DNA from: an uncultured cyanobacterium | GTDB taxonomy: Bacteria; Cyanobacteriota; Cyanobacteriia; Cyanobacteriales; CAWUOF01 | Direction: 5' to 3' | DNA length: 64,000 nt | NCBI GenBank assembly: GCA_963744145.1 | Contig: CAVUSO010000001.1 | Coordinates: 1,678,831-1,742,830, forward strand | Shown here: piece after piece, positions 2,970 to 35,765 of the stretch | How positions within the stretch are numbered: the first letter of the stretch is position 1 | Layout: each line of letters opens with the position of its first letter | Notes under the pieces: generated by a model | Seen by the model: only the letters and a program-made list of their open reading frames with translations | Database searches by the model: none | Told to the model about the DNA's origin: nothing | Position numbers and translations under genes: made by a program

Positions 2970-4201
2970 CTAAAGATGTATTATCGCCAGAAAAGATTTT
3001 GACTCTGCCCTCAGATCAAGAAGCTTCAGGTCGAACTTTAGGTGAAGAAGAAATTGCACTACTAACTAAGGCAATTCACAGTGGTACTTTGACCAGTACG
3101 AAAGGCAATTTTGTGAAAACCTTAGAAACCCAATTTGCTAAATCTATTGGGGTTAAACACGCTTATGCTTGTGCATCAGGAACAGGTGCAATTCATGTCG
3201 CTGTTGCAGCGATCGACCCAGAACCAGGTGATGAGATCGTCACCACTGCGATTACAGATATGGGAGCATTAACACCCATTCTTTATCAAGGTGCAATTCC
3301 TGTATTTGCTGATGTCGATCCAAAAACTTGGAACGTCACCGCAGCGAGTATTGAAAAAAGTTTAAGCGATCGCACCAAAGCAATTATCGTGACCCACTTA
3401 TTTGGTAATCCCTGTGAGATGGATGAAATTACTGAATTAGCGCGATCGCGAAATATTCCCATCATCGAAGATTGCGCTCAAGCATTTGGAGCTAAACATA
3501 ACAACCAGCATATCGGCTCCTTTGGAGCAGTAGGTTGTTTTAGCTTACAACAAGGTAAACATATTACCACAGGTGAAGGTGGAATAGTTACCACCAATGA
3601 CGATGCTTTAGCTCGACGGATGTTTTTATTTATTAACAAAGCTTGGGGATATGGTGATCCCCAACCCGATCATTACTTTTTAGCACTTAATTATCGGATG
3701 TGCGAATTGCAGGGAGCAGTAGCAGTCGGACAGTTAGAAAAATTAGACAGTGTTGTCCAGAGCCGAATTACTGCTGCTAATAAACTAACTGAAAAATTGC
3801 AAGGACTAAAGGGAATCCAAACACCATGGGTGAGTGCTAAAAATGTTCACACTTATTGGAAATATTGCCTCAGTGTAGATGGTACAGTTATCCCTAATGG
3901 TCCAGTTGGATTAGCGCAACGCTTAAAAGAAAAAGGAATTTTCTCAGCTCCAAGATATATCCAAAAACCAGCCTTTATGTGCGAAATTTTCCAAAAACAA
4001 AACACTTTTGGTAAATCTCGCTTTCCCTTCACCTTAGCTCGTCCTGAAGCAGTTAATTACGATCGCTCCCTCTTCCCAGGAACTTTTGCTGGGTTAGAAA
4101 GCGTTTTAGTTTTACCCTGGAATGAACGCTACACTGACGAACATATCGACTATATTGCCAATTCCATCTCCCAAGTACATCAGACTCTTGTCGCTCAATA
4201 A
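2966..4201 (+). CDS. DegT/DnrJ/EryC1/StrS family PLP-dependent sugar aminotransferase (ArnB/WbpE-like)
   Basis: GTGAIHVAV...DEIVTTAITDMG...conserved K in FSLQQGKHITTGEGG; 4-bp overlap with upstream GT2 gene. Confidence 0.85.
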   Translation: MTKDVLSPEKILTLPSDQEASGRTLGEEEIALLTKAIHSGTLTSTKGNFVKTLETQFAKSIGVKHAYACASGTGAIHVAVAAIDPEPGDEIVTTAITDMGALTPILYQGAIPVFADVDPKTWNVTAASIEKSLSDRTKAIIVTHLFGNPCEMDEITELARSRNIPIIEDCAQAFGAKHNNQHIGSFGAVGCFSLQQGKHITTGEGGIVTTNDDALARRMFLFINKAWGYGDPQPDHYFLALNYRMCELQGAVAVGQLEKLDSVVQSRITAANKLTEKLQGLKGIQTPWVSAKNVHTYWKYCLSVDGTVIPNGPVGLAQRLKEKGIFSAPRYIQKPAFMCEIFQKQNTFGKSRFPFTLARPEAVNYDRSLFPGTFAGLESVLVLPWNERYTDEHIDYIANSISQVHQTLVAQ

Positions 4202-27871: not shown

Positions 27872-28194
27872 TCGCCAAACTGAAAAGTCTGAACGCTTTT
27901 AATCAAGTTCCCATCTTTCTAGATTTTCGCTTACCAGCTTCCGTTCGATCGCTCGGATGGCTCTCTCGGCTCTGTGGTAAAAAAGTATCTTAAGCTACAA
28001 ATCTTTTGGTTAATGAGGGCGGAAATGCTCGCTGTTCAGGCAATATAAGTCTTACTTATAACCATAAATCCGGGAGAGCCATAAATTTTATTACAATATT
28101 TTGATATTGTTGGGATGGATGGTGTATATATGCTATAATATCGGCAGAATTCACTTAAGATTTTAAGAATTCATAATTCATGATAAACAGTTGA

Positions 28195-28475
28195 GTCAGT
28201 AACCCAGCCCTAAAGGGATGTAGCTCGAAAGAGCTATACTGACCAGACTCCACGGGTAGATTGATTTGAGTCAAGACGCGCCTTGAATGCGACGTAGGGG
28301 CTTGTTGTTCTTGCGCCCGTACATCACAAAAGTACACCAATCTGAACAATCCCCGTGTAATGGACAAAGAAATATTTACTGGCGGTTAAAACCGCGCTTA
28401 GTCGTTTTCCTCTCAGGTCTAAAGACGCGCTCGTTTCCCACAAACCCAAGTTTTCTTATGAGTTTTTTGCAATAA
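28195..28475 (+). ncRNA. degenerate IscB omega-RNA scaffold homolog (solo copy) ending in an IscB start remnant ATGAGTTTTTTGCAATAA (MSFLQ*)
   Basis: Alignable to the minus-strand RNA upstream of iscB at 35556-35765: GTCAGTAACCCA..GTAGCTC(T)GAAAGAGCT(G/A)TACTGACCAGAC(C/T)CCACGGG..AATGCGACG.., with compensatory stem changes (CAAGGCTAAAGCCTTG vs CCCTAAAGGG). Confidence 0.45.
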
Positions 28476-28606
28476 TTCTCAATTTTCTGCCCCCAGAGGA
28501 CTTTTTGGCAATCTAAAGATGTTAGATGGGTTCTATATAGACAAGGTTGTTCCTAGCTTGCTTAAAAATTAAATTTGTAACCTAATGAAAATCAGGATAT
28601 AAGCTT

Positions 28607-29536
28607 ATGAATAACAAATCTGAAAAAACAGGACCTAAAGTTGACTTAACCTATGACGACTATATTGGTTTAGAAACTCTTCTTTCTCTTCAAAAAACTC
28701 TTACTCCTTATCACGATGAACTTATTTTTTTGGTATATCATCAGCAGACAGAACTTTGGTTTAGCCTTATAATTCATGAGATTAAGCGATTTATTCAGTT
28801 ATTAATATCTACTGATAGTGATTTTGTAAATGCCCTGGATGCTGTTAAGCGTATTAATAGATATCTTTCTATATTAATAAATAGTTTTGATGTTCTACTT
28901 GAAGGTATATCTACTGAAGAGTTTCTTATCTTTCGTAAAGCTTTTGGTTCTGCTAGTGGATTTCAATCAGTCCAATTCCGGATAATAGAAATTCTTATTG
29001 ACCTCAAATGTGAAGATTCCGACTTTTTAAGTAAGAAAATCAATTTGCCTACTGATCCGAAAGATATAAATCATACTCCGACAAAATCAAGTACATTCTA
29101 CTGGGAGAATGCTTACCATTATCTTTCTCCAAATCAGCCAACAACCACTCTTATAAATTTCAAAAATAAGTATCAAGATTTTTTAAATGATTTATATCAA
29201 AAAGGAGAAAGAATTTCACTTATATCTGCATTTTATTATGTGGTGTCTGATCGGAAATTCGGATTAGAAGGGATAGTTGAAACTCTTGAAAAGCTATTTA
29301 TAGATGGGGAAAATAAAGCTATTATTAAAATAGCTGAAGAGCTAATCAAAATGGATGATTCTATTATCCAGTGGAAACGCACACACTTAAAAGCTGTTGC
29401 TAAACACATGAGTCAAGTAAAGTATGGAACCGGTCAAACAGAATGTATGGAATACTTAAAAAAAAGTATTGTTAAAAATCACTACTTTCCAGAACTTTAC
29501 TTAGCAAAAAGCAAATCTTTAGGAATTACGCATTGA
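28607..29536 (+). CDS. tryptophan 2,3-dioxygenase family protein (AT-rich gene)
   Basis: LTYDDYIGLETLLSLQ...HDELIFLVYHQQTELWFSLIIHE and SGFQSVQFRIIE, ...YGTGQTECMEYL...FPELY match TDO/KynA hallmark motifs. Confidence 0.75.
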   Translation: MNNKSEKTGPKVDLTYDDYIGLETLLSLQKTLTPYHDELIFLVYHQQTELWFSLIIHEIKRFIQLLISTDSDFVNALDAVKRINRYLSILINSFDVLLEGISTEEFLIFRKAFGSASGFQSVQFRIIEILIDLKCEDSDFLSKKINLPTDPKDINHTPTKSSTFYWENAYHYLSPNQPTTTLINFKNKYQDFLNDLYQKGERISLISAFYYVVSDRKFGLEGIVETLEKLFIDGENKAIIKIAEELIKMDDSIIQWKRTHLKAVAKHMSQVKYGTGQTECMEYLKKSIVKNHYFPELYLAKSKSLGITH

Positions 29537-33723: not shown

Positions 33724-34185
33724 CTATTTATTAGGATTACTGAGACAGGTATTTTTTATGTCTTCAATTACCTGATCTCGGTCTTTTTTAGAATCCTCTA
33801 AATTCTGAGATGCTTCAATAAAATTTGGTTGATTTTTATTTTTGGCAGCCTTCATCCGATCATCGAGGGCTTTGCTAGTTCCTTCATAACTTTTAAATAG
33901 ACGAGATTTAAAATCTAAGCTTTTTTCATTAGTAATTTTAAACTGGTTAAGTTCTCTAGCTCCTTGCTGAAAAATCTCACTCAGTTTATTAATGTAGTCC
34001 GTATCATCATTGGCTTTTTTCAGCTTTTCAGCATCCTTAGTATCATCCATAATGTGATTATGAATTTCTAGTATTTGTGTTGCTTCATCTTTATTACACA
34101 TCGGTTTTTTAACGCAACTATTGACCATTAAGCTAATCGCTATTATTACAGAAAACATGGCCATGTCTTGACGAGAAATTTTCAT
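33724..34185 (-). CDS. hypothetical Lys/Asp-rich lipoprotein (AT-rich gene)
   Basis: Signal peptide plus lipobox MVNSC; sits 85 bp downstream of iscB stop with two hairpins between. Confidence 0.4.
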   Translation of the reverse strand: MKISRQDMAMFSVIIAISLMVNSCVKKPMCNKDEATQILEIHNHIMDDTKDAEKLKKANDDTDYINKLSEIFQQGARELNQFKITNEKSLDFKSRLFKSYEGTSKALDDRMKAAKNKNQPNFIEASQNLEDSKKDRDQVIEDIKNTCLSNPNK

Positions 34186-34270
34186 AAAAAAACCTGGTAA
34201 GTGGGAAACTCAGGTTCTTTAGACCTGAGAGGTAAACAACCCAAGTGGTTTTAACCACCTAAGAATATTT

Positions 34271-35555
34271 CTAATCTGCGTAACCATAACCGTCCTTATG
34301 GTGGACAATCTGGCAGTATTTGTGACTAATCCCTTGAACTAATTTCCCGGCTGAAATGTTAAAAGAGCCGCTTGTCCTAATTGCTACCCGACCGACATAT
34401 TTGCCGATTTTCTTACCTTTTGTGACAATCGCTTTGACGATATCACCAGTTTGAAAACCTTTGACGAATTTGAATCTAGGGACATATCGATCAGGAAATC
34501 CAAACTCGTTAGTTCGGCACATTTGACGAGTTCCATGACCAGTTGCTTCAATCAACAATGGTTTAGCTGTTAGTAGCTTCAGCGAGTCAATTTTACCGAC
34601 ACAACTAGCGTCAATCCAATGTGCTTTTGGTAGGTTTAACCGAGTACGATTAAATTTTGTTAATCCACCTGAACCAGTTGAAACAGGCAACTCAGTTTCC
34701 TTGAGCCTATTAAATAGTGCCCATCGGGTTGAGTTAACTGCCGCAGCATCTTTTAACGGGCGTTTGGCTTGAGCCAATACTCGCTTTAGAACATCTGGTT
34801 TCTTAGCTAGAAACTTCTCAATAGATTGAATACCTTTCTTTTGATTACATTTTTCGCAAGCTAAACAAAGGTTAGAGATTCGGTCACTACCACCTTTCGC
34901 TTTAGGATGAATATGTTCTACTTGTAGTTGCAGATTTTCTGATCCACAATAGGCGCATTTTCTCTCCCATTTTTCTAGTAGGTATTCACGTACTTCATAC
35001 CCTAATAATGTTCCTTGCTGGTACTCTATTCCTGTTATTTCAGGATTTTCTTCTTTCTGTAAATCGAACTTTACCAACTCCAGCGCAATTGAGCTAATTG
35101 GTGCTAATTTGATTAATCTTTTTACCCAAGTTATGGTGGTTTCAACTCGGTGTTGTAAACTAGGTGCTAGCCATCCTTTAGGACGGGTTCTATTTAAGAA
35201 CCTTGCTTGACGGTAACGAGTATGGCGATTTCTGCGATTTCGACGTAGTGAACACCGAGATTCTAGACTAGCTTTAATCGTTTGTCCCCGATGAGTTAGT
35301 TCTGCACCAAAAATTACTTTCTCGCCTTGAATAATCGCAAACCCGGTTGTTTTTGAGCCTGGATCGATCTTAATTTCTAATTCTTGAACAGACCTCAGTA
35401 GAAACCTCTTTCAAGATAATCGTGAAGGGATAACGTCTGAATACAGCCGCTTTTCCTTGACTAAGTAATAAACGTGCTTTAGCCGGATGAACCGGATCTA
35501 GTGGTCGTTTATTCGTATCCAAAACAAATGCGAAATTTGACATTTGAAACTCCAT
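34271..35555 (-). CDS. iscB: IscB (IS200/IS605-associated OMEGA RNA-guided nuclease, Cas9 ancestor); one frameshift near 35385-35410; start probably at 35543 (MSNFAFV)
   Basis: N-terminal PLMP domain [45 protein letters not shown]; Ruv[14 protein letters not shown]; Arg-rich bridge helix [25 protein letters not shown]; HNH CAYCGS...[30 protein letters not shown]; RuvC-II/III downstream. Confidence 0.75.
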
Positions 35556-35765
35556 TGCTGGGTAATGTTCGCTTCGACCTGTTATAAGGGCTTTTTAGAC
35601 CTGCAACACTACTTCAGTGACCTTAAAGCTGTTTAATTGCAGATGACAGAGCGGAAAACTAGCGTCGCATTCTCCGGTGTCGTGACCCAAATAACGTCTC
35701 CCCGTGGGGTCTGGTCAGTACAGCTCTTTCAGAGCTACAAGGCTTTAGCCTTGGGTTACTGACGA
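35544..35765 (-). ncRNA. putative IscB omega-RNA scaffold (5' of and overlapping iscB start), guide expected just beyond 35765
   Basis: Minus-strand hairpins CCAAGGCTAAAGCCTTG, GTAGCTCTGAAAGAGCTGTAC, GACCCCACGGGGAGAC; second divergent copy at 28195-28457 with covarying stems. Confidence 0.55.

Follow-up and report, generated by a model that had tools for sequence, protein, structure and literature searches.

The window analysed here is a stretch of 64,000 nucleotides (nt) from an uncultured cyanobacterium (contig CAVUSO010000001.1, positions 1,678,831 to 1,742,830 of the forward strand); all coordinates given below are those of the window. It contains a full-length IscB element of 1578 nt on the minus strand (34186-35763, delineated with Rfam, Pfam and tblastn), and a short stretch on the plus strand (28195-28457, 263 nt), which we call the solo. 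IscB is the nuclease from which Cas9 descends. The solo is followed by ATGA (28458-28461) and, 145 nt farther on the same strand, by a gene for a tryptophan-2,3-dioxygenase-like (TDO-like) protein. A first-pass annotation had described the solo either as a decayed second IscB element, whose nuclease open reading frame (ORF) was replaced by this next gene, or as an omega-RNA that was retained and co-opted as a standalone non-coding RNA.

Two blocks of the solo are homologous to the full element. The first block (28195-28303) corresponds to the initial ~110 nt of the full element's omega-RNA (35763-35657), with 79% identity over 107 columns (blastn, E value 4e-20; nhmmer, E value 1.5e-29); the blastn alignment runs from 28190 to 28294 and covers the omega-RNA from its start over ~105 nt. 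The alignment score is 58, compared to 8.3+/-1.4 for 500 dinucleotide shuffles, none of which scored as high (z=35). The second block, 28368-28461, matches 34272-34182 on the minus strand, directly past the iscB stop codon, with 76% identity (blastn, E value 1e-13; nhmmer, E value 1.6e-24; z=26), and again 0 of 500 shuffles reached the observed score. A 20-mer and a 17-mer motif shared by the two elements occur exactly twice each in the window, compared to 0.00 and 0.12 expected occurrences. For positions 28290-28372 there is no significant match to the full element, and the comparison of 28304-28457 with the 3' half of the omega-RNA gave a score of 10.5 versus 8.6+/-1.4, which was equalled by 66 of 500 shuffles (z=1.4). 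The two blocks are the omega-RNA-side and the TAM-side extremities of the element (TAM, target-adjacent motif), with nothing matching between them; therefore, the solo corresponds to an IscB element that lacks ~1.4 kb of its interior. We consider it highly probable that the solo is non-coding and derives by internal deletion from an IscB-encoding element of the IS200/IS605 superfamily (ISC), and that it was inserted 5' of ATGA.

These results modify the first-pass annotation in several respects. Homology between the plus strand, from exactly 28195, and the minus-strand omega-RNA was confirmed, and the shared blocks GTCAGTAACCCA, GTAGCTC.GAAAGAGCT.TACTGACCAGAC.CCACGGG and AATGCGACG are all present. 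The claimed length of about 260 nt is reduced to ~110 nt: this part is far above the shuffled controls, whereas the remainder is at their level. The CAGGTCTAAA block, which had been counted as omega-RNA homology, sits in the 94-nt block 28368-28461 that matches the sequence past the iscB stop codon. The proposed decapitated IscB start, MSFLQ* (ATGAGTTTTTTGCAATAA), turned out to be the ATGA target site followed by ordinary flanking sequence, where the homology to the full element and to ~80 relatives stops; the start codon of iscB would fall within the deleted interior, ~220 nt past the start of the element. Thus, the solo is indeed a second, independently inserted member of the family without iscB, as suggested; what did not hold is the remnant of an iscB start and the replacement of the ORF.

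Transposon ends and the mini-element family

The solo starts at 28195 with the omega-RNA-side terminus GTCAGTAAC and ends at 28457 with the TAM-side terminus ...GTTTCCCAC..T-rich, followed by ATGA, so that the termini of the family are found at both ends. We examined an IscB of Microcoleaceae (P0173) that is located on at least 23 contigs, and compared ten of these loci (L005-L014), in which copies of an identical element are flanked by at least two different contexts upstream and at least two downstream. The similarity between these copies begins exactly at GTCAGTAAC and stops right past ...TTTTTTATGA(ATC). The solo and the full element start and stop where these copies leave their flanks, and the termini are therefore true transposon ends. 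In agreement with this, cyanobacterial ISC transposons are known to have 5'-GT(CA) termini and to insert at N|ATGA with no target duplication, as shown with empty sites (Kapitonov 2016, PMC4810608). Because of this published preference, and because ATGA or GTGA adjoins the element end in nearly all of 82 ends that we aligned, the ATGA at 28458-28461 is regarded as the target, outside the element, and not as an iscB start; it opens just a 5-codon ORF, MSFLQ*. The 5' flank of the solo ends with ...GTTGA, so there is no target-site duplication of ATGA. If the solo is an insertion, the empty site is expected to read ...CAGTTGA|ATGAGTTT, i.e., ...AAACAGTTGA|ATGAGTTTTTTG. It should be noted that the TnpA-based convention names the omega-RNA side the right end and calls the ATGA side the left end (Meers, 10.1101/2023.03.14.532601).

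Between the two termini, the solo consists of four parts on the plus strand. A truncated omega-RNA (HEARO) scaffold, corresponding to model positions ~1 to 113-127 of 211, occupies 28195-28306. It is followed by a deletion joint or filler at 28307-28318, with no detectable homologue, located between two blocks that align to mini-elements of ~440 nt, which are described below. The segment 28319-28367, by alignment, is common to these mini-elements and is without a DNA-level match in the full element of the window. The TAM-side end at 28368-28457 contains hairpin 1 (~28381-28396) and hairpin 2 (~28412-28433), the latter with a CTCAGGTCTAAAGAC core; hairpin 2 and hairpin A of the omega-RNA side have a CAGNNCTAAAGNN core in common. 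The coding capacity of the solo is limited to two overlapping spurious ORFs of 62 and 70 amino acids (aa); no similarity to IscB or TnpB was found in it, and the tblastn matches to IscB in the window are confined to 35543-34274. The segment 28319-28367 is probably a decayed remnant of the last ~17-20 iscB codons, as suggested by a weak S-x-K-Y-x-x-[IL] resemblance to the IscB C-terminus, which was judged by eye alone; DNA similarity between the middle of the solo and the 3' end of the iscB in the window is not significant.

The TAM-side end of the solo is intact. Across the 82 aligned ends, 92% of the cells in the TAM-side hairpins are paired and seven pairs are changed on both sides; none of 500 shuffles was as good, and slid controls gave 27-37%. 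The ...GACGCGCTCGTTTCCCAC variant of the solo was found in L040, L044, L031 and L096 as well. We had considered hairpin 2 of the solo (CTCAG...GCTCG) to be broken, and this was dropped: the GCTCG variant is present in 22 of the 82 ends, some of them identical to the solo in this part. Two variants of the outer stem of hairpin 2 can be distinguished (A4 columns 51-53 with 68-70; window 28430-28433), ...CTGAG in 60 ends and ...GCTCG in 22. In some elements, e.g., L122, the omega-RNA-side hairpin bears the matching stem variant, which suggests co-evolution or homogenisation of the two ends. By analogy with published IS200/IS605 elements, the subterminal hairpins at both ends of the solo are likely to be recognition structures of TnpA.

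To describe the family, we scanned metagenomes with the TAM-side motif GTTTNCCTCTCAGGNCTAAAG, which is present in both copies of the window and in full elements of the L005 type, and obtained at least 120 stretches. The stretches were classified with nhmmer profiles of both ends and with tblastn searches using IscB; a mini-element was defined as both ends on one strand, no more than 700 nt apart, without IscB between them. Among the matches listed, to which the counts in this section refer, there are 68 mini-elements, 7 IscB-containing elements, 25 matches too near to a contig edge, and 24 matches with the TAM-side end alone. Five of these 24 have a more divergent full HEARO just upstream (Rfam), which brings the number of mini-elements to ~73, and ~4 adjoin an antisense tnpB (L018:1575-2912, L114:64-1284, L117:450-1908 and L119:341-1806). 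The ends adjacent to tnpB agree with the report by Kapitonov that ISC and TnpB-only (IS605B) elements share a terminus and presumably the same transposase.

The end-to-end lengths of 69 pairs are 224 nt, 267 nt (the solo, including ATGA), 350-480 nt and, in one case, 684 nt. The typical mini-element of 350-480 nt contains a complete omega-RNA, a short 3' remnant of iscB and the TAM-side end. A full-length HEARO was detected in 19 of 20 mini-element loci tested (106-161 bits; with five others, 86-161 bits). There are 61 unique mini-element sequences with unrelated flanks that differ from copy to copy, and these mini-elements are the known “standalone omega-RNAs”. The solo aligns to them along most of its length: its first ~112 nt to their first ~125 nt, and its positions 125-267 to the final ~140 nt of many mini-elements of ~440 nt, with 72-79% identity, ~50 nt farther upstream than the match to the full element. 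Compared to complete mini-elements, the solo has one gap of ~155 nt, extending over the omega-RNA 3' half and the region where iscB formerly started.

Some of the metagenomic matches have unusual arrangements. There are two different mini-elements ~230 nt apart (L032:2375-3426), a lone end directly upstream of a full element (L062:502-2331), and two omega-RNA ends ahead of one TAM-side end (L132:2458-3843; 684 nt). In another locus (L049:1895-4384), the ends are 2.5 kb apart with no IscB, and a match to Intron_gpII (Rfam) is located at 4024-4102; a group II intron domain (Rfam Intron_gpII) was also found inside or beside an element of the family at L088:1179-1256. An isolated TAM-side end at L004:8147-8238 (...TTTTTCTATAAAG, without ATGA) has no upstream omega-RNA or IscB and lies beside a truncated TnpB-like gene; it is a still more reduced remnant of the same family.

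The covarying hairpin, which the first-pass annotation took as evidence of selection on RNA structure, should be viewed against this background. The compensatory changes are real (CAAGGC-TAAA-GCCTTG versus CAGCCC-TAAA-GGGATG); however, the same hairpin covaries across the whole family, and for this reason the changes are uninformative about selection on the solo, being inherited from different functional ancestors.

The full element served as the reference for these comparisons. Its omega-RNA (35763-35562, minus strand; Rfam HEARO RF02033, 131 bits) folds with z=-2.87 compared to shuffles. The iscB gene extends from the ATG at 35543 to the stop codon at 34271 on the minus strand with one frameshift near 35391/35392, so that tblastn gives two pieces, 35543-35391 and 35392-34274; HNH domains (Pfam) are on a 268-aa ORF that corresponds to the C-terminal part. 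The frameshift (35385-35395, minus strand) falls between codons ~51 and 52, just ahead of the RuvC-I motif, and either this iscB is a pseudogene or the frameshift is a sequencing error. After repair of the frameshift, the protein has 77-87% identity to thousands of IscB proteins from Microcoleus, Kamptonema, Anabaena and related cyanobacteria. A 437-aa IscB homologue (P0126), assigned to the same genome by inference, is 86% identical to it. The TAM-side end at 34272-34186, which matches the 3' block of the solo in blastn, is followed by the ATGA target (34182-34185, minus strand), the ATG of which is the start codon of a 153-aa ORF (34185-33724; P0123) with identical start calls in NCBI, ENA and Logan. 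A Logan contig that is 100% identical to the window (L135, from ERR11571142) starts at 34224, i.e., 39 nt inside the TAM-side end of the full element; a break in this place is expected for a repeat. Elsewhere in the window, there are phycobilisome and Psb27 genes, which confirm that the DNA is cyanobacterial.

The truncated omega-RNA and the fate of the copy

A permissive search of 27900-28700 with the HEARO model (RF02033) gave 31.1 bits for the solo (E value 1.7e-4), with the 5' part alone being aligned. The Rfam gathering score for this family is 83 bits; the solo is below this threshold, and the gathering-threshold scan of the window has no match in it. The 5' domain is well preserved: P1 (28195-28201 with 28237-28243) encloses hairpin A (28205-28220) and hairpin B (28221-28236) and is followed by UGACCAG, with cmscan posteriors mostly of at least 0.9, and the aligned stems are GTCAGTA/TACTGAC, CCC-TAAA-GGG and TAGCTC-GAAA-GAGCTA. 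The scaffold also retains the 5' strands of the pseudoknot and of the long-range stem, and a part of hairpin D. The 3' strands of these two helices (model positions ~180-195) and hairpin E were not found in the solo, from which model positions ~128-211 are absent. The fold of the solo is no more stable than that of shuffled sequence (z=-0.87), and the ORF directly past it does not encode an IscB with RuvC and HNH domains; the next gene is the homologue of Trp_dioxygenase. Judging from these features, the solo is predicted not to supply a complete, foldable omega-RNA scaffold able to bind an effector, and is best described as a broken, apparently non-working example of a standalone omega-RNA. 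With its 3' half missing and its fold at the level of shuffles, the solo does not support the proposal of an omega-RNA that was retained and co-opted as a standalone RNA.

It is instructive to compare the solo with known systems. Standalone, effector-less and mobilised omega-RNA loci of OMEGA/IscB systems are described in the summaries of Altae-Tran 2021 in PMC10691335 and PMC9581776. Similar to these loci, the solo has an omega-RNA-side end without an adjacent IscB or transposase, is derived from a mobilised element, and has compatible IscB genes elsewhere in the genome (the frameshifted iscB at 35543-34271, and P0126 under the above assignment). The ~73 metagenomic relatives fit the description fully, whereas in the solo the scaffold is cut off after ~55-60% of its length and falls short of the HEARO threshold. 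With HEARO itself, the solo shares P1, hairpins A and B, the UGACCAG motif and the AAUGCGACG loop, aligned to model positions 1-~113; unlike a typical member, it cannot form the pseudoknot, the long-range stem and hairpin E, and has no HNH/RuvC ORF next to it.

Another comparison is with PATEs, protein-less derivatives of IS200/IS605 (PMC4810608; 10.1101/2023.03.14.532601, Extended Data Fig. 2e), the published examples of which are related to ISGst1 and ISGst5 of Geobacillus. The solo resembles them in being short and non-coding, with hairpins at both ends, a presumed need for TnpA in trans and no target-site duplication. In contrast to PATEs, it is derived from an IscB-encoding (ISC) element rather than from a TnpA- or TnpB-encoding one, and one of its ends doubles as a stretch of guide-RNA gene. 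The same 5'-GT(CA) terminus and N|ATGA insertion are known from cyanobacterial ISC transposons, e.g., ISC1-1_MA of Microcystis aeruginosa (Kapitonov 2016, PMC4810608), along with a 3' terminus common with antisense-TnpB (IS605B) elements, as in the four tnpB-adjacent loci listed above; these transposons are full-length, IscB-encoding and ~1.3-1.7 kb long, whereas the solo has 263 nt and no ORF. As judged from sequence, the solo has the features of a non-autonomous, PATE-like ISC element: both termini, insertion at N|ATGA without duplication, hairpins and no coding capacity. Multi-copy mobility is seen for the family, with 61 unique mini-elements at different sites, and the 263-nt form was found in one copy. 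The solo is, thus, an ordinary relic that belongs to a type already known, rather than a new RNA gene.

The following scenario may account for these features. A full element would have lost iscB by internal deletion, giving a mobile standalone omega-RNA mini-element, and a further deletion of ~155 nt would have removed the 3' half of the omega-RNA, with hairpin E and the strands that close the pseudoknot and the long-range stem on the 3' side. Any transcript of the solo would be unable to form the omega-RNA core and could not guide IscB to re-cut the emptied site. The IscB-dependent retention of such elements, in which the emptied site is cut and the element is copied back (Meers, 10.1101/2023.03.14.532601), would thus be closed to the solo. 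A Y1 transposase (TnpA) acting in trans could still excise the solo, since both subterminal hairpins and the contexts of the cleavage sites remain. Once excised, the solo would have no route to restore itself, and it would be an evolutionary dead end that decays in place. The solo is most likely a non-functional relic.

Several points weigh against this scenario. The 263-nt form was seen in a single copy, and the search of the source genome covered the 64-kb window. The 5' part of the solo is nearer to the full element of the window (79%) than to any mini-element found (63-68%, full length); because it is closest to the local copy, the solo may just as well have arisen from a local full-length element by one large deletion, or by copies recombining with each other, as in two steps, and the order in which a mini-element arose first and the second deletion came later is a tentative one. 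No TnpA was found among ten small ORFs of the window that were tested, none of which had a Y1_Tnp domain. The loss of omega-RNA function is deduced from the missing helices, and engineered IscB omega-RNAs tolerate sizeable truncations. Searches for further copies of the solo were negative within their scope: a search of genome contigs with TACTGACCAGACNCCACGGG gave just a chance match in a high-GC actinobacterial contig (L001), the plasmid collection contained no match, and scanning metagenomes for this arrangement of motifs (ACTGACCAG-N148-178-CTCTCAGGNCTAAAG) gave no match, which is a weak result in that the ACTGACCAG anchor is not conserved in mini-elements.

Alternative explanations and the neighbouring gene

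The TDO-like gene (Pfam Trp_dioxygenase; 28607-29536, plus strand) has ~30% G+C (GC) content, compared to 40-47% in the flanks, and probably either came in by horizontal transfer or has a role in a small-molecule pathway. The closest homologue other than the protein itself (72%, L002) is located beside genes for HD-domain and luciferase-like proteins, in an unrelated context with no element. A Logan contig 100% identical to the window (L003, from ERR11571142) starts at 28467, i.e., 10 nt past the solo, so that the comparison is uninformative with respect to an empty site; low coverage, a T-run or an insertion polymorphism could be behind this break. Upstream of the solo, the 16 nt at 28179-28194 (CATGATAAACAGTTGA, plus strand) would be the guide of any omega-RNA made from it, given the established location of OMEGA guides immediately beyond the end of the transposon (PMC10691335). 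A consensus scan detected a promoter-like site, TTGGGA-18 nt-TATAAT, 55 nt before the solo (28110-28139, plus strand), from which the solo could be transcribed; the number of such sites, 3 versus 2.0+/-1.3 expected, is not significant, and the scan found no terminator-like site.

An alternative that we regard as very unlikely is that the solo is a functional standalone omega-RNA, acting in trans and giving the IscB of this genome an extra guide (the 16 nt before 28195). Effector-less omega-RNA loci that act in trans do exist (PMC10691335, PMC9581776), the ~73 relatives have a complete omega-RNA, IscB genes are present (the frameshifted copy 5.7 kb from the solo, and P0126, if it belongs to the same genome), and there is the promoter-like site upstream. 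However, HEARO positions ~128-211 are missing from the solo, and with them the 3' sides of the pseudoknot and of the long-range stem; it scores 31 bits versus the 83 bits required, and folds at z=-0.87. Moreover, just 2 of the 69 pairs listed are this short (224 and 267 nt), and the rest, of at least 350 nt, have the whole scaffold, an argument for maintenance of the scaffold in its complete form. Quite unlikely, too, is that the solo has been kept as a short structured RNA or DNA, e.g., as a decoy that binds IscB or TnpA and so dampens the family, or as a leader of the TDO-like gene; this would be an early domestication of half an omega-RNA.

We likewise consider it very unlikely that the host has adopted the solo to regulate the TDO-like gene in cis, as its leader, promoter or terminator, or as a small RNA unrelated to IscB. 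It lies on the same strand as this gene, 145 nt before it, other members of the family commonly occupy the 5' leader of a host gene, right at its start codon, and the DNA downstream of the solo is identical in a second sample (L003). In contrast to these family members, the solo is not at a start codon, with its ATGA opening MSFLQ*; the lack of a terminator-like site and the background level of promoter-like sites speak against regulation of this kind, the comparison with L003 covers the DNA from 10 nt past the solo, and nothing sets the solo apart from neutral decay. That recombination or gene capture within an IscB element put the TDO-like gene in the place of the iscB ORF, as one variant of the first-pass annotation has it, appears highly improbable. 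Although the gene follows the remnant directly and, at ~30% GC, may be foreign, both termini (28195 and 28457/28458) and ATGA lie upstream of it; no end-like motif was found past the gene, the end motif occurring just twice in the window, and the closest homologue has no element nearby. The iscB gene was most probably lost by internal deletion with both termini kept, the element ends at 28457, and the TDO-like gene is an unrelated neighbour outside it. Finally, chance or low-complexity similarity could be invoked in view of the shortness of some blocks; given the shuffles (0 of 500 for either block), the motif counts (2 versus 0.00 and 0.12) and nhmmer E values of ~1e-24 to 1e-29, its probability is close to nil. 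An internally deleted ISC copy, thus, remains our preferred interpretation of the solo.

Start-codon placement and its meaning for the family

In this family, the ATGA or GTGA target very often contains the true start codon of a host gene, with striking frequency that of a housekeeping gene. The ATG of the ATGA target opens an ORF of at least 100 codons at 37 of 90 distinct sites; taking every ATGA of the same DNA, the share is 15.4% (p 4e-9). All ten ORFs of this kind that were tested have Pfam domains beginning at the N-terminus, and the host genes include gatB, argG and genes for a GH57 branching enzyme, GT2, Nramp and a Rubisco-activase-like protein (examples of start-codon placement within L015-L134 are L038:8017, L058:2017, L073:2442 and L025:7795). 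The full element of the window is also placed on a start codon, that of the 153-aa ORF at 34185, whereas the solo is not. The element end, ...ACCGAG-T(6-7)|ATG, may replace the displaced ribosome-binding region, and the host promoter and 5' untranslated region would then supply both transcription of the omega-RNA and its guide. A farther-reaching idea, which we regard as improbable, is that the family has specialised to this effect in insertion precisely at ATG-A start codons, with the GAG-T(6-7) end re-creating a ribosome-binding context. In a limited look at the literature, we found no earlier report of such placement.

The locus itself matters little: what had been read as a solo omega-RNA with a beheaded iscB is corrected to a gutted transposon with both ends. 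It illustrates that stems which covary between two copies of a mobile element carry no information about selection on the decayed one. For the family, the consequences are somewhat broader. Among the matches listed, which come from filamentous cyanobacteria and their metagenomes, IscB-less mini-elements outnumber IscB-encoding elements by about ten to one, and the placement at start codons suggests a model in which the elements would be transcribed and provided with a guide while the host gene survives.

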